A DNA stretch of 39,190 nt from a virus: the IMG/VR virus record IMGVR_UViG_3300034141_000061, positions 1 to 39,190 of that record; one strand, 5' to 3'. Position 1 is the stretch's first letter, and each line of letters begins with the position of its first letter. Under the pieces are notes generated by a model. It was not told the origin of the DNA and did not search any database. It saw only the letters and a program-made list of their open reading frames with translations. Both the position numbers and the translations under genes were made by a program. Below are positions 1,855 through 39,190 of this stretch, piece after piece.

Positions 1855-1859
1855 CTCCG

Positions 1860-1880
1860 CCGTCCCCTCCCCGTTCGGGC
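1860..1880 (+). repeat. C-rich 21-nt intergenic motif, copy 1: CCGTCCCCTCCCCGTTCGGGC
   Basis: Read directly. It ends 11 nt before GTG 1892. Confidence 0.9.
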
Positions 1881-1891
1881 AGCGCCAGTCT

Positions 1892-7344: not shown

Positions 7345-7351
7345 GCCTCTG

Positions 7352-7372
7352 CGGTCCCCCCCCCGTTCGGGC
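7352..7372 (+). repeat. C-rich 21-nt intergenic motif, copy 2: CGGTCCCCCCCCCGTTCGGGC
   Basis: Read directly. It ends 17 nt before ATG 7390. Confidence 0.9.
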
Positions 7373-7389
7373 CCGGCCAGCATCGGGTC

Positions 7390-13308: not shown

Positions 13309-13329
13309 CCGTCCCCCCCCTTTTCGGGC
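13309..13329 (+). repeat. C-rich 21-nt intergenic motif, copy 3: CCGTCCCCCCCCTTTTCGGGC
   Basis: Read directly. It ends 16 nt before ATG 13346 and is followed by GGGGGGAAAAA. Confidence 0.9.
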
Positions 13330-13345
13330 GGGGGGAAAAAGGGCC

Positions 13346-14005
13346 ATGACGACGGCTCCCGCTCCCTCGATCGGTTCTTCCGCGCTGGCAGGTTCGGCGG
13401 TCGGACCGTTCCCGACCGGTTTCAAGTACGGGACCCCGGAAGACGTGCGCGTCTGGCTCGAGCTGGCCGGCCTGCGTCAGCCTGACCTGACCCTGACCGC
13501 CGATTACACGCTTTCGGGCGCCGCTCCCCTGGTCGACGGCGGCACGATCACGCTTTCAGGGGCGCTAGTCCCGACCGGCGGATGGGCCGCGGGCGACCGC
13601 CTGGTGTGGGCGCGGCGGACCGTGAAGCGCCAGGCGCTCGCCCTCCCTGACGCTGAGGGGCACAAGCCGCGCGCGACGGAACAGGTGCTCGACAAGGTCA
13701 TGCGGGCCGCCGAGGAGCAAGCCGACCAGCAGGCTCTCGCCCTGACCGTCCCCGCCGGAGAGGATGGCCAGCAGCTTCCAACCGTCTCCCGCCGCCAGGG
13801 CCGCATGTTCGTCGGCGGAGCCGCCGGCGAGGCGCTGACGCTGCTGGAGGGGTCCGAGCAGGTTGTGACGCTGGACGCCGACGGCCGGGCCGTCCCCATG
13901 GCGCTGGTTCACGTGTTTGGCGCGATCGGCACCGACCTTTTCGACGACGGCTCCTGGCAGCCGACCGACGATCCTTCCGCAAACGATGATGGAGCTTGGG
14001 GCTGA
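13346..14005 (+). CDS. Tail fibre/tailspike adaptor protein candidate
   Basis: 219 aa, immediately upstream of the beta-helix tailspike gene and overlapping it (TGATG). Called on position only. Confidence 0.4.
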   Translation: MTTAPAPSIGSSALAGSAVGPFPTGFKYGTPEDVRVWLELAGLRQPDLTLTADYTLSGAAPLVDGGTITLSGALVPTGGWAAGDRLVWARRTVKRQALALPDAEGHKPRATEQVLDKVMRAAEEQADQQALALTVPAGEDGQQLPTVSRRQGRMFVGGAAGEALTLLEGSEQVVTLDADGRAVPMALVHVFGAIGTDLFDDGSWQPTDDPSANDDGAWG

Positions 14006-26066: not shown

Positions 26067-26227
26067 GCCCGCCCGACGAAGCGCGGCTGCGCGCCTGGCT
26101 GGAATATGTCGCCGACACCGCGATCGAGATGCTGGACGCGCTCGATGCGGCCATGTCCGACCACGAGCCGGACGGCGAGGACGAGGTGGTCTGCGCCGAG
26201 GACACGGGCCGGAGGCTGCGCGCATGA
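26063..26227 (+). CDS. Hypothetical acidic protein (54 aa)
   Basis: ATGA overlaps on both sides; in frame inside track ORF 25730..26227. Confidence 0.5.
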   Translation: MSPPDEARLRAWLEYVADTAIEMLDALDAAMSDHEPDGEDEVVCAEDTGRRLRA

Positions 26228-26931
26228 CCGCGCTGGCCCTCGCTCGCATCCCTGCCCTGCCGCCGGTCACGCCGCGCGTCGGTTCGCCCCGCCGGGCCGC
26301 GATCCTGACCGCGCTGGCCGCGGCTGCCGTGCGCGACGGCAACCTGAAGGCGGTGCTGGTGCTGGCCCGCACCGGGCGGCCCCGCAGCCTGTTCACTTGC
26401 GCCGGCGGTTTCCGCTGGCTGGCGATGGCGGGGCTGAAGGCGGTCTATCCCGACGCCAACGACGCGGCCCTGAGGGCTGCGCTGGGCTGCCGGCCGTCAC
26501 GGGACAACCGGCCGCGCGCGGCGCTGCGCGAAATCTGGCCGGATGACGCGGTCGAGGCTGTGGCGCGGGCCGTGGTGGAGAACGAGGACGCCCAGCTGAC
26601 GGCGAGCTGGGTCTGGCCCGAGGCCTGCGCCATCGCCGCGGCCCACACCGGCGCCCCGGTCCAGGCGGTGCAGACGCCGCCGGGCACGCGGGGATGCCAG
26701 CCGCACGCGATCAGCAGCGCGCGGAAGCTGGCCGTGTACCTGACGATGACCGAGGGCGACGTGAACGCCACGGCCATGGCGGCCGCGACCGGCTTGGACA
26801 AGTCGACGGTGCGGCACGCCGTCGACCAGCTGGCCGACCGGCGGGACGACGATCCACAGCTGGACGAGACGCTGGAGACTCTGACGACGCAGCTGCGCCA
26901 GCGGCTGGACGAGGATCTGGGCCAGTGGTGA
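26224..26931 (+). CDS. Replication-initiation candidate with DnaA domain IV-like C-terminal HTH
   Basis: 235 aa. PHAISSARKLAVYLTMTEGDVNATAMAAATGLDKSTVRHAVDQLADRRDDDPQLDETLETL runs parallel to the E. coli DnaA C-terminus ([47 protein letters not shown]...). It heads the replication module. Confidence 0.55.
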   Translation: MTALALARIPALPPVTPRVGSPRRAAILTALAAAAVRDGNLKAVLVLARTGRPRSLFTCAGGFRWLAMAGLKAVYPDANDAALRAALGCRPSRDNRPRAALREIWPDDAVEAVARAVVENEDAQLTASWVWPEACAIAAAHTGAPVQAVQTPPGTRGCQPHAISSARKLAVYLTMTEGDVNATAMAAATGLDKSTVRHAVDQLADRRDDDPQLDETLETLTTQLRQRLDEDLGQW

Positions 26932-31154: not shown

Positions 31155-31487
31155 ATGCCGGTGAGGCCGGAGAACAGGGCGCGATACCCGGCCGACTGGC
31201 CGGCGATCGCCCTGGCCGTGAAGGAGCGCGCCGGCTGGCGGTGCGAGGGCTCGCCTGCCTACCCTGACTGCCGCGCCGGCCACGGCCACTCGCACCCGGT
31301 GACGGGGTCTCGCGTCGTCCTGACGGCCGCGCACCTCGACCAGCAGCCCGAAAACTGCGCCGACGAGAACCTGCGCAGCTGGTGTCAGCGCTGCCACAAC
31401 ATCTATGACGCGCCGTTCAGGGCTGCGGGGCGCAGAGAACGCCGTCAGGCCCTGATCCACGCCCAAGGCGCGCCAGCGCCCCTCTAA
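31155..31487 (+). CDS. HNH endonuclease
   Basis: 110 aa. The pattern CEG ... C ... AHLDQQPENCADENLRSWCQRCHNIYD is an HNH/Cys-box pattern. The gene is located just upstream of the terminase genes. Confidence 0.8.
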   Translation: MPVRPENRARYPADWPAIALAVKERAGWRCEGSPAYPDCRAGHGHSHPVTGSRVVLTAAHLDQQPENCADENLRSWCQRCHNIYDAPFRAAGRRERRQALIHAQGAPAPL

Positions 31488-31746
31488 CAACAGGACGGCC
31501 CTGCCTGCGCCAGCAGGCTGGGCTGGACGCATCGCCGACTAGGCGATGACCTTCGCCCTTAGCGCGCCACGGCGCGCGCCTGCGCAGCGCCCGCAGGGCG
31601 CGGTGCGCGCAGGCACAGCATCACCTTCAGAACGCCACCCTGACCCGGACCCAAGGCGCTCCAGATGGCCCTCCGTCCATCCCCGACCCGAGCCCGGTTA
31701 GCGAGGATATGGGCGCTGCGCAGGGTCGGGGGAGACCAGGCGACAG

Positions 31747-31984
31747 GGTTCCACGGTTCCGCTGACGGTTCCGGGGAAAGCCCAGCCCGATCATCAACAT
31801 GGCCGAACGTGGAACCGTGGAACCGGTGGAACCGTGCTGCGCCGCTCCATGCGCGAGCAGCAGGGCCGGTTCTCCTACATAGGCGAGGACTAGATGGTTC
31901 CATGGGTTCTATGGTTCCACCCCTGCCGCTGGGCCCGATATCATTGAATATGGGCTGGAACCGCCTCTGGAACTCCGAAGAACC
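31747..31984. repeat. Iteron field: two tandem modules, each with 3 x GGTTCC(AC), a GCCCGAT(AT)CAT-type spacer, then 3 x (GT)GGAACC in inverted orientation
   Basis: GGTTCC at 31747, 31755, 31767. GGAACC at 31811, 31819, 31828. GGTTCC/GGTTCT at 31896, 31905, 31913. GGAACC/GGAACT/AGAACC at 31957, 31969, 31979. Related spacers are at 31785-31802 and 31933-31953, the second AT-rich. The region is non-coding. Confidence 0.85.
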
Positions 31985-32004
31985 CAATAAACTAGGGTCT
32001 GAAA

Positions 32005-32547
32005 ATGAAATCCCCCGTCGCGCCTGCCCTGCCGGGCCTCGCACCGGCGCCCAAGAGAGGGCCGGGCCGTCCGAAAGGATCCGCGAACAAGCGCTCGGGC
32101 GACCTGCAGCGCTACATCGAGAGCACCTATGGCGGGCTGACGCCGGGCCAGCAGTCCGCGGCGGTCGGCCTGGTGACGGCGGCCGAGCTGCGCGCCGACG
32201 GCGGGGACCTGCTGGTGGCCATGGCGCGGAAGGCCGCCCGGCTGGCCACGCTGATCGGGTGCGAGGGCAAGGAGGCGTGGCTGCTGATGCAGCGGGAGCG
32301 GGCCGACCTGCTGCCCTACATCCACCAGAAGCTGCCGCCGAAGGCCGAGGCCGGCCAGGGCGACACGCCGACCCATACGTTCTACGCCGTGCCGATCGAG
32401 GAGACGACGGCGGCCGGCGGCGGCGCGCAGCTGGGCGAGTGGGACACGCCCGCCGACCTCATTGAATATCAAGGGGTTAGCACCGAGCCCGGCGAGCAAG
32501 TCACCCAACCGAAGTCACCTGACGACAACGAACCTGTTGAACCGTAA
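32005..32547 (+). CDS. Terminase small subunit candidate
   Basis: 180 aa immediately upstream of terL and downstream of the iteron field. The N-terminus is basic (KRGPGRPKGSANKRSGDL). Position-based call. Confidence 0.45.
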   Translation: MKSPVAPALPGLAPAPKRGPGRPKGSANKRSGDLQRYIESTYGGLTPGQQSAAVGLVTAAELRADGGDLLVAMARKAARLATLIGCEGKEAWLLMQRERADLLPYIHQKLPPKAEAGQGDTPTHTFYAVPIEETTAAGGGAQLGEWDTPADLIEYQGVSTEPGEQVTQPKSPDDNEPVEP

Positions 32548-32604
32548 AGGCTTCCACCCTCGCGCGCCTCTGATCAGAAATCAGATGGGCTAGGCCCTGG
32601 GGGC

Positions 32605-32638
32605 CGACCCCCCGCCCCCCTCTCGACCCCCCGCCCCC
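32605..32638 (-). repeat. G-quadruplex-type tract on the minus strand (GGGGG-C-GGGGGG-TCGAGA-GGGGGG-C-GGGGGG), a tandem CGACCCCCCGCCCCC repeat on the plus strand
   Basis: Read directly in the terS-terL gap. There are four G-runs of 5-6 with loops of 1, 6 and 1 nt. Confidence 0.8.
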
Positions 32639-32700
32639 GAAAACCGGGCCCGTCCGTTTTCCCGTGGGGGGTGCTTCCGGCAGGTTCAACGCCCTCGGCT

Positions 32701-32721
32701 CCGTCCCCCCCCCGTTCTGGC
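32701..32721 (+). repeat. C-rich 21-nt intergenic motif, copy 4: CCGTCCCCCCCCCGTTCTGGC
   Basis: Read directly. It lies upstream of the first plausible terL start (TTG 32769), or inside the ORF if GTG 32664 were used. Confidence 0.9.
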
Positions 32722-32768
32722 CCGGCGAAATTGATTCGGTCGAAACGGGTCAGGGTCAGGGAAAGCGC

Positions 32769-34286
32769 TTGTCGGGCGAAGCGAAGGTCGAGCAGCGGCA
32801 GTGGGGCTTCGCCGGACCGGTGGCGCGACGGTTCGAGTTCGACCGCTCGCCAATCGTGTTTCTGACGGGGCCGACGGGCGGCGGCAAAACCATAGCCGCG
32901 GCGCGCCGGTGTCTTCGTACTGCTCTCTGGCAGCACGCTAGTCCGAGAGACGGCTGGCGTCGAGCCCGGATTTACGTCGTCTGCCCCACCTATCGGATCG
33001 CCTGGGACAGCGTCATCCCCAGCTACCTGAAGGTCTATCCGAAGGAGACCAAGGGCCCGACGTGCGAAGCTGTCTGGAAGGGCGCCCAGGGCGACCCCGC
33101 GACCCACATCGTCCGCTTCCCCGGGAAAGGGCCCGACGGTCAGGGCCCGGTCGAGCTGGAGGTGCGGTTCCGCGCCGTGCAGGACGTCGACCTGGACGAG
33201 TTCTTCCGGGGCAAGGAGTGCACGGCGTTCTGGCTGCCGGAATTCGACACCCATGAGCAGAAGGCGATCCTGTCGTATTGCGTCAACCGGGTCGGGCGCT
33301 TCCCCGAGCCCGACGACCGTCCGATCGATCCGCCGACGCCGTCCTACGCCGGCGTGTGGGGCGACGCGAACACGCCGACGATCGGCAGTTGGTTCCAGAA
33401 GGACTTCTACACCGCCGCCCCGGCGGGCGTGATGGTGCACAAGCAGCCGCCCGGCTATGATCCAGACAGTCCCGACGGCTTCCATGCCCAGGCCGAGAAC
33501 GCGGCCAACCTGAGGCGCATCCGGCCCGACTACTACCGCAACATGGCGGCGGGCATGGAGGAGCACGACGTGCGCCGCCTGCTGCAGTGCAAGCTGACCT
33601 ACGGTCGGATGGGCAAGCCGGTGCACCCGGCCTTCGACGAGACCCTGCATGTCGGACCCCAGGCCATGGAGCCGGACGCCGAGGCCGTGGTGGTCATCGG
33701 CATCGACGTCGACTTCCACGGCGCCGCGTCGTTCGGTCAGCGGGGGATGTTCGGAAGCTGGAATGTATTCGCCGAGATCGTGGCGGCTGACAGCCCCGAC
33801 GGCGAGATGGACGTGATCGAGTTCGCCGACGCCATCGTGGGCGTGATGAAGACCGTGTTCCCGCGCTGCAAGCGGGCGATCATCGTCATGGATCCGGCGG
33901 GCAAGAGCCGTTCGACCCTGAACCGTGGGCTGAGCTGGGCCAGCGAGCTGCAGGCGCGCACCAAGATCACGGTCGTCCCGGCGCCCAGCAATGATCCGAG
34001 GCTACGCCGCGCGGCCATGGCGCGGCCCCTGAAGCGCCGCAACGGCATCCGCTGGCATCCTCGCTGCACCTGGTCGATCACCGCCATGAACGGCGGCTTC
34101 CACTACCCGCAGAAGGGCAATCAGACGTCGATGGTGGCGAAGAAGAACGTCTATTCGTCGATCGGAGAGGCCAACGAATACATGACCATGGGCGGCGAAG
34201 GCGTCGAGGACCGGGCCGGCCTGGTCCCCTATATGGGCATGGGCGCGCCGAGCCAGTCGAACGTCGTGGAAGTGGTGTTCGACTAG
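32769..34286 (+). CDS. terL: Terminase large subunit
   Basis: Walker A FLTGPTGGGKT at about 32860-32892, with ATPase and then nuclease-like halves, upstream of portal. There is no in-frame ATG before Walker A. Start candidates are TTG 32769 (AGGGAAAG upstream) and GTG 32664 (no SD; would translate the C-rich motif). Confidence 0.8.
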   Translation: MSGEAKVEQRQWGFAGPVARRFEFDRSPIVFLTGPTGGGKTIAAARRCLRTALWQHASPRDGWRRARIYVVCPTYRIAWDSVIPSYLKVYPKETKGPTCEAVWKGAQGDPATHIVRFPGKGPDGQGPVELEVRFRAVQDVDLDEFFRGKECTAFWLPEFDTHEQKAILSYCVNRVGRFPEPDDRPIDPPTPSYAGVWGDANTPTIGSWFQKDFYTAAPAGVMVHKQPPGYDPDSPDGFHAQAENAANLRRIRPDYYRNMAAGMEEHDVRRLLQCKLTYGRMGKPVHPAFDETLHVGPQAMEPDAEAVVVIGIDVDFHGAASFGQRGMFGSWNVFAEIVAADSPDGEMDVIEFADAIVGVMKTVFPRCKRAIIVMDPAGKSRSTLNRGLSWASELQARTKITVVPAPSNDPRLRRAAMARPLKRRNGIRWHPRCTWSITAMNGGFHYPQKGNQTSMVAKKNVYSSIGEANEYMTMGGEGVEDRAGLVPYMGMGAPSQSNVVEVVFD

Positions 34287-34359
34287 CCGTCCCCTCAGGC
34301 CATTGGCGGTCGCATCCTTGGGTCTCTGGTTTGATCCAGTCCACAATGGAGAATTCGCC

Positions 34360-34839
34360 ATGAGACGTGCCTTCAGTCTGATCGCGGTCTGCTGCATCGC
34401 CCTGACCGCCGCCGCCTGCAGTTTCGCCACCGCCGCCGATGCTGCGCCTGTCTTCGCCGCCATGGCGGCGTCGGCCGACCCGGGATGGGCCGAGGGCGCC
34501 GCCATGGCTATGACCCTGTCGGCCGCCGGCGTTACCGCGTCGTCGTCGTTGCAAGCCGACGACGCCGCGGCCGGCGCCGTTGCTGTCGCCCCGCGCGTGA
34601 CCCTTGAAAGTATCGAGGCCAAGATCGTGCGAGAGGAAACGCATGTCTTCGATGATCTGCTGACGGTCCACGTCCTGACGATGGCCAACGGCTTCAAAAT
34701 CACCGGCGAGAGCGCGTGCGCCAGTCCCGAAAACTACAACGCCGAGCTGGGCGTCAAGATCGCGCGTGATCAGGCAATCAGGAAAGCGTGGGGCTTCGAG
34801 GGCTACCTGCTTCGAGAACAGTTGCACGCCAGCGGCTGA
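34360..34839 (+). CDS. Lipoprotein with N4 gp49 / Sf6 gp66-like C-terminal domain
   Basis: 159 aa from ATG 34360 with GGAGAA upstream. The signal peptide has lipobox MRRAFSLIAVCCIALTAAAC. The C-terminal FKITGESACASPENYNAELGVKIARDQAIRKAWGFEGYLLREQL resembles the gp49/gp66 phage family as I recall it. Confidence 0.6.
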   Translation: MRRAFSLIAVCCIALTAAACSFATAADAAPVFAAMAASADPGWAEGAAMAMTLSAAGVTASSSLQADDAAAGAVAVAPRVTLESIEAKIVREETHVFDDLLTVHVLTMANGFKITGESACASPENYNAELGVKIARDQAIRKAWGFEGYLLREQLHASG

Positions 34840-34888
34840 AGTCGGCCAGTAGGGGCGGATCAGCATGTCGCCCCGAATACCGTCTAGG

Positions 34889-34924
34889 AGCCCCGGCCGG
34901 GAAATTGGCCGGGGCTTTTCGTTG
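34889..34924 (+). terminator. Rho-independent terminator after the lipoprotein gene
   Basis: Perfect 10-bp stem AGCCCCGGCC / GGCCGGGGCT with an 8-nt loop, followed by TTTTCGTTG. Confidence 0.8.
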
Positions 34925-34933
34925 TCCGGCATT

Positions 34934-34954
34934 CCGTCCCCTCCCCGTTGCGGC
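34934..34954 (+). repeat. C-rich 21-nt intergenic motif, copy 5: CCGTCCCCTCCCCGTTGCGGC
   Basis: Read directly. It lies between the terminator and ATG 34972, ending 17 nt upstream of that ATG. Confidence 0.9.
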
Positions 34955-34971
34955 GGGCCGAGGATGCAGGA

Positions 34972-35166
34972 ATGAGCTTCCTGCGCCGCCCGAAGGTCAC
35001 CGCCCCTCCCCGCCCGATTGATCCGGCGGATACGGCCAACCGCGCCGATCAGGTGCGGCAGAAGCGGCTGCGCGGCGGCGGGACCGCATCAACCTTCCTG
35101 AGCCAAGCCGTCGCCGAGGCCGCGCAGGTCGGCCCGCGGCCGACCCTGACGGGTGCCGCCGGATGA
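34972..35166 (+). CDS. Small head-module protein (64 aa)
   Basis: ATG 34972 with GAGGA upstream. ATGA overlap with the portal gene. Basic and Pro-rich. Confidence 0.55.
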   Translation: MSFLRRPKVTAPPRPIDPADTANRADQVRQKRLRGGGTASTFLSQAVAEAAQVGPRPTLTGAAG

Positions 35167-36884
35167 CGACGGCCGCCCAGGTCCAGGTCAGCGACTTCGG
35201 CAAGCGCGTCCGGCGCCATTTCGAAGACGCGCAGCAGCTGCGTCGGATGCACGAGCCCGGCTGGCAGGCCGTCAGCGACTATTTCTACCCGAACAGCAGC
35301 TTCAACATCACGCCCGTGCCCGGCCAGCGCCGCAACCGGCGCGTGGTGACCAACGTGGGGCGCCAGAACCTGACATCGGCGGCCGCGTTGGTGACCGCCT
35401 ATGCGATCGACACCACCCAGCCTTTCCTGACGCCCAACGTCGGCCGGTCCATGGCCCAGAGCGGGCGCGCCGTTTACCGCAAGGGCCCCGACGGTCGGCG
35501 GCTGGACCTAGACGAGGCGTCGCGGGACTATCTCGACGACCTGCGCTGGCAGATGTTCGACGCGCAGATGCTGCCGCAGAGCAACTTCCTGCCGGCGACG
35601 GTGCGGTTCATCCTCGAATTCCTCGGCTTCGGCGGCAGCGTCCAGTGGACGGGCCGCAAGCGCGGGTTCGGACCCCGCTACCAGCACCGCCCGCTGCGCG
35701 CCTGCTGGTGGATCGAGAACGAAGACGGCGAGATCGACACCCTGTTCTTCCAGTGGACGACGCCGGCCCACCGCCTGGTCGAGCGCTACCCTGACGCCGC
35801 CAACCATCCGAAGATCAGGGAGATGGCGGCCGACGACAAGAAGGCCAGCACTCCGATCCGCTGCCTGCACCTGGTGGAGCCGCGCAAGGGCGGCGTCATG
35901 GGCGGCGTGGCGTCCAACAAGCCGTTCGCGTCAAAAGTCTTCCTGCCCGACCACGACTGGTTCGAGGTCAAGAACGAGGGGTACGACAGCTTCCCCTACC
36001 AGATCGCCCGCATGGATCTGTGGGAGGGCTCGCCCTATCCGAGCGGCCTCGGCTTCCAAGCCCTGCCCGACCTGATGGCCATAAACCACTTCAGCGGCGG
36101 GATGGAACGTGCCATCGACCTGATCAACGATCCGGTGCTGTTCGCGCCGACGCGCCTGTTCGGCAACAAGCTGGACCGGCGCCCTGGCACGGTGAACATC
36201 TACGACCCGGTGAACCTGGGCTTCCAGAGCCTGAGGGACGCGATCCAGAAGGCCGAGATCTCCGGCGACCCCAGCTGGGCTGAACGCCGCATCGCCGCCC
36301 TGACGGTCAACGTCGAACGGGTGTTCTTCGCCGACATGATGCGGCTGCGCGACGCGGCGAACGTGACGGCCGAAGAGATCCGCGAGCGCCGCGACCTGCG
36401 CACACGGTCCATGAGCTTCCTGGTCCCCGCGCTCGACCGCGAGCTGTTCGGCAAGTCGGCCGACCGCAGCCTCGAAGCCCTGATGGAGGAAGACCTGGTC
36501 CCGGCCCCGCCGGCGGGCCTGTCGGGCGTCGAGGTCGATTGGGATTACGCCGGGCCGCTGGCCAAGGCGCAGATGCTGACCCAGGTGGACGGCGCCCTGC
36601 GCCTGTTCGACGCCGTCACCACGGCCAAGCAGTTCGACGAGAGCGCCGGCGACGTCGTCGCGGTGCACGAGGCGCTGCGCACCATCAACGACAGCCTGGG
36701 CAACGCGCCAGCCATGCTGAACAGCCGCGAGGCCGTAGCCGCGAAGGCGGAAGCCCGCGCCGAAGCCGAGGCACAGCAACAGCAGAATGAAGCGATGACC
36801 GCGAAGGCGACCGCCCTGCGCGACGCCGGCCAAGGCATCGCCTCGATCGAGAACACCGGACAGCCGGCGGCCATGGCGGCGTAG
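35163..36884 (+). CDS. Portal (head-to-tail connector) protein
   Basis: 573 aa. It lies between terL and scaffold/capsid, and its size is close to T7 gp8 (about 536 aa). Called on position and size. Confidence 0.7.
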   Translation: MTTAAQVQVSDFGKRVRRHFEDAQQLRRMHEPGWQAVSDYFYPNSSFNITPVPGQRRNRRVVTNVGRQNLTSAAALVTAYAIDTTQPFLTPNVGRSMAQSGRAVYRKGPDGRRLDLDEASRDYLDDLRWQMFDAQMLPQSNFLPATVRFILEFLGFGGSVQWTGRKRGFGPRYQHRPLRACWWIENEDGEIDTLFFQWTTPAHRLVERYPDAANHPKIREMAADDKKASTPIRCLHLVEPRKGGVMGGVASNKPFASKVFLPDHDWFEVKNEGYDSFPYQIARMDLWEGSPYPSGLGFQALPDLMAINHFSGGMERAIDLINDPVLFAPTRLFGNKLDRRPGTVNIYDPVNLGFQSLRDAIQKAEISGDPSWAERRIAALTVNVERVFFADMMRLRDAANVTAEEIRERRDLRTRSMSFLVPALDRELFGKSADRSLEALMEEDLVPAPPAGLSGVEVDWDYAGPLAKAQMLTQVDGALRLFDAVTTAKQFDESAGDVVAVHEALRTINDSLGNAPAMLNSREAVAAKAEARAEAEAQQQQNEAMTAKATALRDAGQGIASIENTGQPAAMAA

Positions 36885-37054
36885 GGCCGCACCACAGGAG
36901 AGACGGCCTTGAGCAAGCCCATGACCAAAAATCCGCCCCCGGAGCGGCCAACCAACCGCCGCCGGGGATTGTTGGCGTCAACGATGATGACGCCGCAGCA
37001 CGGTCAGCCACGCGGTGGCCTGTGCGGCGCTCTGCTTGAGCAGATGGCAGAGCC

Positions 37055-37540
37055 TTGACCGACATGCCCGCCGATACCGAGGAGCTGGAGCCCGCCGTCA
37101 GCTTTGACAGCGCGCGGCTGATCGCCGACGTCCGGCGGGGCGAGGAGTTCGCGATCAGCGAGGCGTACAGTCGCACGTTCGGCAACGCCTTGGGCCGCGT
37201 CGTCCTTCTGCACGCGCTGGCGACCATCGGCGAGGTGGGCAAGCCGCGCACGGCCGAGACGCCGGAGCAATCCAACCACACCAACGGGCGCGGCTACGCC
37301 GTGCTCGAGATCGCCCGCCTGGCGGGCTTCGACCATGTCGCGATCAGCGCGGCGGGTCTGACACAAACGCTTGAAGGAGCGAGCTATGAGCACGGATACG
37401 GGCAACACCAGCACCACGATGGAAGGCCAGTCGTCGACTTCGGAGACGGGGACCACGGGTTCGACGGCGGCGCAGCAGACGGGGACCACGGCGCAGACTT
37501 CGACCACGGAGGGACAATCGGGCCAGACCGGGACGACTGA
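37055..37540 (+). CDS. Hypothetical head-module protein with Asp/Gly/His-rich tail that overlaps the scaffold gene out of frame
   Basis: 161 aa (TTG 37055) or 158 aa (ATG 37064). GC3 is high up to about 37370. The frame then stays open for about 50 more codons inside the scaffold gene. Confidence 0.55.
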   Translation: MTDMPADTEELEPAVSFDSARLIADVRRGEEFAISEAYSRTFGNALGRVVLLHALATIGEVGKPRTAETPEQSNHTNGRGYAVLEIARLAGFDHVAISAAGLTQTLEGASYEHGYGQHQHHDGRPVVDFGDGDHGFDGGAADGDHGADFDHGGTIGPDRDD

Positions 37541-38387
37541 AGGCGGCGGCGCCACCACCACCACGGAGACGCCGTGGCAGGACAACCTAGCCGGCGACCT
37601 GAAGACCAACCCGCTGTTCCGCGACTACAAGAGCGTGGACGAGCTGGCGAAGGCTCACGACAACCTGGTGAAGCTGAAGGGCGCCAAGCCGTCCGAGCTG
37701 CTGAAAATCCCCGCCAAGACGCGCGACCAGGACCCTGAAGCGTGGAAGGCGTTCGACGCCGTGCGCGGCGTGCCGGCCGACCCGAAGGAATACAAGTTCG
37801 AGCTGGCTCCCGAGGCGGCGGCCGACGCCGGCGAGTTGGCCGGCACCCTGCGCGAGCTGGGAACCAAGGCCAGCCTGGACCCGCATCAGATGGCCGTCGT
37901 CGTCTCGACCCTGAACGACCTCGGGAAGAAGGCCGCCGAGGCCGAGGCAACGGCGCTGAACGCTGAAACCACGGCCACGACCGAGGCTCTGAAAAAGGAG
38001 TGGGGCGCGCAGTTCGACGGCAACCAGCGCGGCATCGGCAAGATGATCCGCGAAGCGCTGGGCGGCGAGATCGACGACGCCGCGATGGCGGACTTGCAGA
38101 CCCAGATCGGGTCGAACCTGACGGTGTCTCGCGTCCTCGCCCACGCACTTTCCAAGATGGCTGAGCCCGAGAACCCCGACGGCGACAGCCAGCGTGCCGC
38201 AGCGACCAAGCAGATGACGCCGACGCAGGCCACGGCGGCGCTGAACGCGTTCCAGGCCGACCCCGAGAAAATGAAGGCGCTGACCCAGCGAAATCATCCG
38301 CAGCATGCGGCGGTCATGGAAGAGCGGCGTCAGCTTCTGGCCTGGCAGACGGGCGAAAAGCGGGTCGATCAGCCGAAGTCGGCATAG
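37386..38387 (+). CDS. Scaffolding protein candidate
   Basis: 333 aa from ATG 37386 with AGGAG 7 nt upstream. The N-terminus is Thr/Ser/Gly-rich and the rest is charged and helical. It lies between portal and capsid like T7 gp9. Confidence 0.6.
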   Translation: MSTDTGNTSTTMEGQSSTSETGTTGSTAAQQTGTTAQTSTTEGQSGQTGTTEGGGATTTTETPWQDNLAGDLKTNPLFRDYKSVDELAKAHDNLVKLKGAKPSELLKIPAKTRDQDPEAWKAFDAVRGVPADPKEYKFELAPEAAADAGELAGTLRELGTKASLDPHQMAVVVSTLNDLGKKAAEAEATALNAETTATTEALKKEWGAQFDGNQRGIGKMIREALGGEIDDAAMADLQTQIGSNLTVSRVLAHALSKMAEPENPDGDSQRAAATKQMTPTQATAALNAFQADPEKMKALTQRNHPQHAAVMEERRQLLAWQTGEKRVDQPKSA

Positions 38388-38625
38388 GCGCTTGACCACG
38401 GGCGCAAATCACTTCAGCCCATAGACAACCGGTTCGGGGTGCGCCGGTCAAAAGCACCCCACCCTTCCCCTGCCGGAGACCGCGAAAGCGCCGGAGCCCA
38501 GGGGGAGCGTCCAAGGCGGACGACACCGCGAGGCGCGCACGGGCCGGTCCCGAGACTGCAGCCGATCAAACCACCACCCCAGGCCGACAGGCCGTTTGAT
38601 CGCATTGCAGGGAGGCTCGCGCCCC

Positions 38626-39190
38626 ATGGACTATTCGCAAATCACCCAGGCCGACGTCGAAGGCTTCCGCTCGAACCTGAACATGGTTCCGCAGCAGACC
38701 GAGAGCGTCTATCTGCCCCACATCAACGCCGACCTGAGCTATTCCGAGCCCGGGAAGATGTTCAACGTCGACAGCATCGGGACTTCCGACCCGAAAGACG
38801 TCGACACCGTCGTGCCGGACAGCCCCGAAGGCATCCTGGACATGACGCGCCGTGTCGGCCTGCTGAAGGGCTTCCACGACGGCAAGTTCATCGAGAGCGT
38901 CCAGAAGGTCCACCAGCTGCAGGACCCGACCAACGAGGTCATGCAGGCGATGCGCGCCGGCAAGATGCGCAAGCTGGACGACAAGGTCCGCGACAGCTTC
39001 TTCGCCGCCGCCCGGATCGGCGAGCACGGCGAGAACACGCTGAACTTCCCCACGGGCAAGGTGATCGGCGTTCAGAGCCGCGCCAAGCTGCACGCGGCCG
39101 AGGTAGCGTCCCTGCCGGCCTCGGGCGACCTGCCGCTGACCCTGGGCAAGATCCTTTCGGCGCGGGCCATCATCCGCAAGTCGAAGATCC
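38626..39190 (+). CDS. Major capsid protein, N-terminal part (continues at base 128 via the 127-bp overlap, ending at 504)
   Basis: ATG 38626 with AGGGAGG 10 nt upstream. The frame is open to the window end, and 39064..39190 duplicates 1..127 in the same frame. Confidence 0.75.
   Translation, partial: MDYSQITQADVEGFRSNLNMVPQQTESVYLPHINADLSYSEPGKMFNVDSIGTSDPKDVDTVVPDSPEGILDMTRRVGLLKGFHDGKFIESVQKVHQLQDPTNEVMQAMRAGKMRKLDDKVRDSFFAAARIGEHGENTLNFPTGKVIGVQSRAKLHAAEVASLPASGDLPLTLGKILSARAIIRKSKI
39064..39190. repeat. Terminal overlap of the contig (copy 2), identical to 1..127
   Basis: Compared base by base: 127/127 identical. Confidence 0.97.

Follow-up and report, generated by a model that had tools for sequence, protein, structure and literature searches.

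Activator-dependent phage promoters that are read by the host RNA polymerase include the MotA-box middle promoters of T4, the C-dependent late promoters of Mu, the Ogr-dependent late promoters of P2 and the cII-dependent promoters of lambda. In alphaproteobacterial gene transfer agents (GTAs), phage-derived structural genes are activated by a DnaA-like DNA-binding domain at sigma-70 promoters with a degenerate -35 element (PMC9638019, PMC11150451). The host family of the phage treated here makes routine use of leaderless mRNAs: in Caulobacter crescentus there are 375 of them, and their translation is no less efficient than that of leadered mRNAs (PMC4117421). Here, we analyzed a viral DNA of 39,190 nt (IMG/VR record IMGVR_UViG_3300034141_000061, called the window below), in which a C-rich 21-nt box is repeated at late-gene junctions, and we propose, with a probability of about 0.62, that this box forms the upstream half of a two-part late promoter peculiar to one family of temperate podophages of Brevundimonas. 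The preliminary description of this DNA, made from the letters alone, knew of no described element with this sequence, and a literature string search for the motif core likewise gave unrelated matches only.

Box, hexamer and start codon at late-gene junctions

The window contains five full copies of the box, exactly where they had first been described and all on the + strand. Copy 1 (CCGTCCCCTCCCCGTTCGGGC, 1860-1880) belongs to the predicted promoter of the tail B gene (P_tailB), copy 2 (CGGTCCCCCCCCCGTTCGGGC, 7352-7372) to that of an SLT/ParB-domain internal virion protein, and copy 3 (CCGTCCCCCCCCTTTTCGGGC, 13309-13329) to that of a 219-aa gene, the tailspike and the distal late genes. Copy 4 (CCGTCCCCCCCCCGTTCTGGC, 32701-32721) would be the upstream element (predicted -38 to -18) of the first late promoter, P_terL, and copy 5 (CCGTCCCCTCCCCGTTGCGGC, 34934-34954) that of P_g64, which would serve a 64-aa gene, portal, capsid and tail A. 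These assignments come from pattern searches and from the comparison with relatives, which were retrieved with the tail B protein as a graded series (87-65% identity) and whose DNA was then compared; the related phage and prophage loci used for comparison are numbered L004-L039. For example, copy 4 is kept upstream of terL in L004-L006, L009-L012 and L029-L037. A pattern search of both strands with up to 3 mismatches returned 5 matches, compared with a chance expectation of 0.02, and none of 100 shuffles reached 5. As had been claimed, all copies lie in non-coding gaps of the late region: the genome-wide mismatch search gave no copy on the opposite strand or inside coding regions, and a position weight matrix scan of both strands, early and lysogeny regions included, found nothing beyond the five. 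Copy 4 falls within a mechanical open reading frame (ORF; 32664-34286), but, judging from the relatives, terL begins only at TTG 32769, which leaves copy 4 non-coding. The distance from box to start codon, first given as 11-17 nt, has to be corrected to a uniform 17, 17, 16 and 17 nt between box end and ATG. Likewise, the start assigned after copy 1 (GTG 1892) is replaced by the true start, ATG 1898 (public gene call P0001, 753 aa; orthologues align from MRQTGFQ).

The conserved unit is longer than 21 nt, and consists of the box, 5 variable nt and a hexamer of the form S-A-N-N-N-T. We aligned 40 sites which had been located by the box alone, and the 39 non-redundant ones were used for the A...T and ATG counts. 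Within the box, positions G3, T4, C5, C6, C10-12, T15 and T16 are invariant. In the hexamer, A is found at box+7 in 38 of 40 sites and T at box+11 in 36 of 40, and the three positions between them are free. The A...T pair occurs at the exact offset in 34 of 39 sites and within ±1 nt in 37, over 22 different hexamers, with a background frequency of 0.024. In addition, G is enriched 2-3 nt before the hexamer (predicted -15/-14) and 1 nt after it (-6). Such a pair, an invariant A and T around three free positions, typifies the -10 element in promoters of the sigma-70 family, and the reduced form ANNNT is used in high-GC bacteria. Judged from this pattern, the S-A-N-N-N-T hexamer is the signature of a sigma-70-family -10 element, unlike that of a Shine-Dalgarno (SD) sequence. 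In a distant relative (L038), the hexamer that corresponds to it upstream of terL is TAAAAT, close to the consensus.

The hexamer is also coupled to the start codon. An ATG lies 5-7 nt past it in 29 of 39 sites (one further site has GTG), with a background ATG frequency of 0.011. In the window, the -10-like hexamers CAGTCT (1886-1891, + strand) and CAGCAT (7378-7383, + strand) precede ATG 1898 and ATG 7390, each the predicted +1 of a leaderless mRNA without SD, and GAGGAT (34960-34965, + strand) precedes ATG 34972, which follows 7 nt after the T and whose A is the predicted +1. The hexamer of copy 3, GAAAAA (13335-13340, + strand; ATG 13346), is atypical, keeping the A and missing the T, and is the weakest -10 fit. 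Transcription would begin at the A of the ATG at four of the five window sites (1898, 7390, 13346 and 34972), and the mRNAs for tail B, the SLT internal protein, the 219-aa protein and the 64-aa protein before the portal would be leaderless. Leaderless translation, as predicted for these four genes, would account for their lack of an SD. The preliminary description had seen no SD at copies 1 and 2, and we find none at starts 1898 and 7390, nor at 13346, while the late genes without the box (1246, 16052, 34360 and 37386) carry AAGGAG or GGAG SDs, as it had noted. When the first 50 nt of the four predicted leaderless transcripts were folded, the AUG was unpaired in three and partly paired at 34972, and the 5' ends were not unusually structured.

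P_terL differs in its leader. Its box and hexamer (GAAATT, 32727-32732, + strand) are arranged as elsewhere, with a transcription start predicted at ~32739, but TTG 32769 lies ~30 nt past this +1, and the leader holds a conserved GGGTCAGGGTCAGGGAAA and an SD-like AGGGAAA. In general, the box at terL is followed after the usual 5 nt by a hexamer such as GAAATT or GAAACT, with no ATG adjacent, and in L005 a box precedes an inserted gene with a ~45-nt leader and its own SD. Since box and hexamer are kept at both terL and the L005 insert, the unit is independent of the start codon, which argues for a promoter acting at the DNA level and not for a translation signal. As a separate observation, the terL leader with GGGTCAGGGTCAGGGAAA and the TTG start (32739-32771) is conserved even in distant relatives without the box (L038, L039); together with the next GGG, GGGTCAGGGTCAGGGAAA provides four G-tracts around the start codon, which could be a translational control element.

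At equivalent junctions, the box is present in about 20 related phages and prophages (about 43-87% protein identity). Five junctions carry it in relatives at 65-87% tail-B identity (L004-L012), and also in IMG/VR and metagenome relatives: before terL, before the 64-aa gene preceding the portal, between tail A and tail B, before the SLT protein, and after a ~910-aa structural protein. An exact search of IMG/VR with the window's own box variant gave 0 hits, and a degenerate pattern was needed. Degenerate scans of IMG/VR and the JGI metagenomes gave 15 loci, 12 of which were equivalent junctions of the window phage family; the remaining 3 have no ATG nearby and look like chance matches. Because the scans returned almost only this family at equivalent junctions, the box is, by sequence comparison, a family-specific and position-specific element and no general host motif. 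The distance from the upstream stop to the box ranges from 0 to >500 nt (for example in L007, with inserted genes), but that from the box to the downstream ATG is constant at 16-17 nt. By this measure, the box belongs with the downstream gene and travels with it when insertions part the neighbors; its position 5-7 nt past a TAG stop in the window is incidental, given the variable upstream distances in relatives. At box positions 5-8, the window shares CCCC with L006 and L010; all five copies of L011 read CCGC, and those of L004 and L005 read CCAC. The variant is thus uniform inside a genome and different between genomes, which suggests co-evolution with a phage-encoded protein.

The half copy of the box reported earlier, CCGTCCCCTC, lies immediately 3' of the terL stop (34287-34296, + strand), and relatives suggest how it arose. 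In L006, L007, L010 and L015, a full box and the 64-aa gene stand directly 3' of the terL stop, whereas in the window a 637-bp segment (34297-34933, + strand) lies between this stop and the full box. The segment is an inserted moron with an N4 gp49/Sf6 gp66 family gene (34360-34839, PF13876), which has its own SD, and the strong intrinsic terminator that had been placed ahead of copy 5 (hairpin and U-run at 34890-34919, -28 kcal/mol). Because the insert has CCGTCCCCTC to its left and the full box to its right, forming a 10-bp repeat of the box 5' half, and the region is uninterrupted in relatives, the half copy is what the insertion left on this side when it split the ancestral box of the terL/g64 promoter. 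A different insert, a secreted protein gene with a terminator, lies between two full boxes in L005 (L005:3300-3880). Extra genes, HNH-like genes among them, are thus found directly beside boxes at window 34297-34933, L005:3300-3880 and L007:7012-8591.

The proposed promoter and a candidate activator

Of the two roles first suggested, late promoter or re-initiation element, the comparison favors the promoter, and the re-initiation or SD-replacing part is not supported. The promoter is favored by the family-wide conservation at junctions, by the -10-like hexamer at a fixed 5 nt, and by the movement of the box with the downstream gene; furthermore, the box also precedes terL and the inserted L005 gene, where the start codon follows 30-50 nt on with its own SD. 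In the proposed promoter, the box would span about -38 to -18, replacing a recognizable -35 element and filling most of the spacer. It would be followed by the five variable nt, with G preferred at -15/-14, and by a weak -10 element, S-A-N-N-N-T, in which only A(-11) and T(-7) are fixed, and transcription is predicted to start 6-7 nt past the hexamer T. A consensus scan of the late region (31400-39190) found 0 canonical sigma-70 promoters, and there is no TTGACA-like -35 element 16-18 nt upstream of the -10, the predicted -35 position being TCCCCY. Promoter shapes of the extracytoplasmic function (ECF), sigma-32 and sigma-54 types were rejected, as inspection of the position matrix showed nothing conserved at the position of a second element.

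Among the phage ORFs scanned with Pfam, PHROGs and NCBIfam, none gave a match to an RNA polymerase or a sigma factor. The promoter would be read by the host RNA polymerase with a sigma-70-family factor, and this enzyme would need an activator bound to the box because the -10 is poor and there is no -35. The activator is probably encoded by the phage, because the boxes of one genome share a variant that changes from genome to genome. The best candidate would be p235 (26224-26931, + strand), a 235-aa protein of the early operon whose C-terminal ~95 aa have a predicted DnaA domain IV fold. Its AlphaFold model has a pLDDT of 90, and the top 11 Foldseek matches in the PDB are DnaA structures, the best being 3pvp (TMt 0.80, rmsd 2.9, probability 1.0). 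Weak sequence matches to the DnaA C-terminal domain run across the recognition helix (DKSTVRHA vs DHTTVLHA in DnaA). The N-terminal domain of the model is helical and has no structural match. p235 is conserved across the phage family, and among 5.8 billion proteins we found 54 homologues, every source-named one of which comes from Brevundimonas; the protein family thus seems limited to this group of phages.

The box itself recalls the site of DnaA. With the DnaA-box 9-mer TT(A/G)TCCACA used for comparison, the 5' end of the box, CCGTCC(A/C/G)C with the core GTCC(A/C/G)C, shares GTCCAC (6/9) or TCCCC (5/6) with DnaA-box consensuses, a match to be read as a resemblance only. DnaA boxes are TTGTCCACA in high-GC bacteria, and the W-box of Caulobacter is TCCCCA (PMC4285127). 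Stand-alone DnaA C-terminal domains occur in many phages. p235 gave no match to DUF6456, the GafA-type domain, in Pfam even at E<=10, and is therefore not classed as a Gaf protein. We regard p235 as a reasonable candidate for the late activator. A wider scenario can also be drawn, which we consider doubtful: a Caulobacteraceae podophage lineage would express its virion genes from at least five leaderless promoters, activated by a stand-alone DnaA-domain-IV protein on a DnaA-box-derived box over the -35/spacer region, and this system would be a free-living phage counterpart, and possibly an evolutionary source, of the GafA/GafY activators of GTAs.

Weighing the promoter against other explanations

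Several points speak against the promoter and against p235 as its activator. First, the start sites and the promoter activity are predictions from sequence, and activator dependence and the identity of the activator are likewise what we infer, as is the start at the ATG. Second, internal promoters at copies 1-3, with no terminator ahead of them, are not strictly required. Third, the hexamers of window copy 3 and of its L006 orthologue (GAAAAC) are without the T, positions 3-4 of the hexamer are purine-rich, and some hexamers, such as GAGGAT, are SD-like. Fourth, on read-through transcripts the box would be an SD-less intercistronic element, and an additional role in RNA is possible. As for p235, its gene adjoins those of primase and helicase and the protein could be a replication initiator; a DnaA domain covers about 9-12 bp and not 21; and the link between the p235 recognition helix and box position 7 rests on about 9 genomes, which are phylogenetically non-independent.

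Among the alternatives, an element acting in RNA survives best, although we consider it unlikely. The box would be an SD-independent signal for ribosome loading or re-initiation, or the operator of a phage or host RNA-binding protein on a polycistronic transcript. Such a role would suit its asymmetry, its restriction to the coding strand, its fixed place 16-17 nt before start codons without SD and the purine-rich hexamer positions 3-4, and there is a comparable unexplained class in the start-associated sequences (SAS) of Cluster K mycobacteriophages (PMC3203893). However, box and hexamer are also kept at terL and at the L005 moron, where they lie 45-50 nt ahead of genes that possess SD-like sites themselves, and the invariance of only A and T around three free positions, over 22 hexamers, is the signature of a -10 element and not of an SD. 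RNA structure does not favor this alternative either, since RNAalifold predicted 0 base pairs on the 39 sites. The CCC-GUUC-GGG hairpin of the preliminary description can be drawn, but it is not conserved and shows no covariation, and 128 of 500 shuffles reached the observed percentage paired; for a second candidate, a hairpin between the C-run and the downstream G-run, 413 of 500 did so, covariation was likewise absent, and both hairpins were rejected. Moreover, the CCUCC of the box is anti-SD-like and cannot pair with 16S rRNA, and the box ends outside the usual ribosome footprint. The earlier view that the box occupies the place of an SD and acts in translation is therefore not supported, as the box ends 16-17 nt before the ATG, resembles an anti-SD and has a small hairpin without covariation. 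Stop-codon read-through or frameshifting at the C-run was also considered and rejected, with inconsistent flanking frames (37/43, 45 and 44 nt) and a second in-frame stop in L006. We note that the gap between the genes for the ~800-aa internal protein and the SLT protein (window 7345-7389 and L006-L013 orthologues) is a multiple of three in 7 of 8 genomes (42, 45, 57, 99...). The window ORFs flanking this gap are in frame across the TAG; given the second stop in L006, a read-through fusion is not general.

A promoter controlled by a host factor appears slightly less probable again. Here, host DnaA would regulate transcription through the DnaA-box-like core, or the host would supply an alternative sigma factor, and the box variants would track the host species. 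The core GTCC(A/C)C does match DnaA-box cores, including the Caulobacter W-box TCCCCA, and no phage sigma factor or classical activator was recognized by Pfam, PHROGs and NCBIfam. On the other hand, a host regulon should show on bacterial contigs, whereas the IMG/VR and JGI scans, made with box and hexamer, led to this phage family at 12 of 15 loci, and to no adjacent ATG at the other 3. The phages also encode a family-specific protein of their own with a DnaA DNA-binding domain.

Two explanations can be given only a very small probability. If the box were a promoter of a single-subunit (T7-like) or other non-canonical phage RNA polymerase, the 17 nt CCGTCCCCYCCCCRTTC would be -17 to -1 and GGGC would be +1 to +4. 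The 17 nt followed by GGG recall the geometry of the T7 group, the tail, connector and internal-protein genes are of T7/epsilon15 type, and the variants are genome-specific; but Pfam and PHROGs gave no RNA polymerase match for any ORF of the complete 39,063-bp genome, sequence comparison with the PDB found no relatives for the two large unassigned proteins, variants such as GTTTCGGC shift or drop the GGG, and the invariant downstream A and T and the fixed ATG distance would be left unexplained. Similarly improbable is a non-regulatory repeat, a recombination joint, insertion hot-spot or small mobile repeat marking module boundaries, which could explain the 10-bp direct repeat of half and full copy around the 637-bp inserted gene, the different insert between two full copies in L005 and the extra genes beside boxes in L007 and L012, but not the position-specific conservation over 40-87% diverged genomes, the strict orientation and the coupling to hexamer and ATG; as morons commonly lodge beside promoters, insertion would be a consequence of the box and not its function.

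The phage and its proposed promoters compared with known systems

The late promoters proposed here belong to a complete phage genome. The window is a closed circle, with bases 1-127 identical to 39064-39190 (100%, 127 nt), which gives a complete genome of 39,063 bp; the gene at the right end of the window runs on across this overlap. Its G+C content is 69%. The phage is a temperate podophage related to epsilon15 and BcepC6B, and its host is probably Brevundimonas, whose genomes harbor related prophages. It carries the lysogeny and early genes for an integrase, a CI-like repressor, primase, helicase and an HNH endonuclease, as well as a terS-like gene, and the late block runs in the order terL, portal, capsid, tail tubular A, tail tubular B, internal virion proteins (one with an SLT domain) and tailspike. 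Megablast of 20 kb of the window against 50,697 deposited phage records gave no match, and the nearest annotated relatives, BcepC6B and the epsilon15/phiV10 group, share ~27% protein identity. Two other genes were considered as late regulators and rejected: the 110-aa gene upstream of terS, which is an HNH endonuclease, and a 180-aa gene (32005-32547), which has no family match. The latter most likely encodes the small terminase, judging by its position, its HNH neighbor and the GGAACC repeats upstream. These repeats, at least 10 copies of GGAACC/GGTTCC(A) in both orientations, lie at 31750-31960, where 517 nt separate the HNH gene from the terS-like gene, and may be replication iterons or, like cosB, binding sites of the small terminase. 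The non-coding stretch 32560-32690, 3' of terS and 5' of the terL promoter, contains a hairpin (CTGATCAGAAATCAGA) and two tandem copies of GACCCCCCGCCCCC; it is kept in all relatives, including those at 65% identity, and may be a cos/pac or regulatory region.

If our proposal is correct, it has several consequences. First, it would define a compact late-promoter class for the uncultivated but widespread prophages of Brevundimonas and other Caulobacteraceae, and a rare case of a proteobacterial phage with most virion operons on leaderless mRNAs. Second, transcription units could be predicted from sequence, the places where morons lodge would be explained, and the box-plus-hexamer rule would correct gene starts, as for tail B (1898), terL (32769) and the tail B of L007. 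Third, it would provide a candidate regulator linking phage late control to the DnaA-like activators of GTAs. Particularly, the related prophage of the cultured strain Brevundimonas staleyi CCUG 57884 (L004; NZ_CP169082.1, 3118332-3140569) has a matching architecture: its four boxes are all of the CCAC type, and it encodes a homologue of p235 (P0145). The strain could be used as an experimental system.

Compared with the T4 MotA, Mu C, P2 Ogr and lambda cII promoters, the sites described here share the presence of several copies in the same orientation before late genes and a -10 element with the -35 missing or replaced by a phage-specific box, for which a phage-encoded binding protein is expected. 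Unlike in those promoters, the box is C-rich, 21 nt long and asymmetric and reaches across the spacer as far as -18, only A(-11) and T(-7) are left of the -10, +1 would fall on the A of the ATG at most copies, and the activator is a candidate. The likeness to the GafA and GafYZ systems (PMC9638019, PMC11150451) lies in the host group, Caulobacter and its relatives, in sigma-70 promoters with a degenerate -35 before phage-type structural genes, and in a regulator with a DnaA-like helix-turn-helix; the GafZ element, moreover, lies between -35 and -10. However, the GTA cluster has one main promoter and uses anti-termination, and GafY binds far upstream together with integration host factor, whereas the DnaA-like domain of p235 is C-terminal and the protein has no DUF6456 match in Pfam.

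As in the leaderless mRNAs of Caulobacter, of mycobacteria and of lambda cI from PRM (PMC4117421, PMC4633059, PMC10491246), the -10 stands ~7 nt before the ATG, and there would be no 5' untranslated region and no SD; the difference is that here leaderless starts are predicted as a repeated, family-conserved design of virion genes coupled to an upstream box. The Cluster K SAS (PMC3203893) are likewise short, asymmetric, one-orientation repeats of one phage group, directly before starts (mostly ATG) and absent from the host genome, but they are 13 bp long with an SD core, AGGAG, lie 3-7 bp from the start and belong to non-structural genes, whereas the present box, C-rich and without an SD, stands before virion genes at 16-17 nt from the start codon, with a -10-like hexamer in between. 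Promoters of the T7 group also consist of ~20-bp conserved blocks repeated before late genes without intervening terminators, and in both cases a genome-specific variant implies a co-evolving recognition protein; in contrast to the T7 group, a single-subunit RNA polymerase is missing from the window genome, and the A...T hexamer downstream of the box speaks for a holoenzyme of the sigma-70 family. From these sequence comparisons, the most fitting description of the element is that of a phage late promoter of the activator type, which would be unusual in its C-rich, DnaA-box-like box and its systematic leaderless design.

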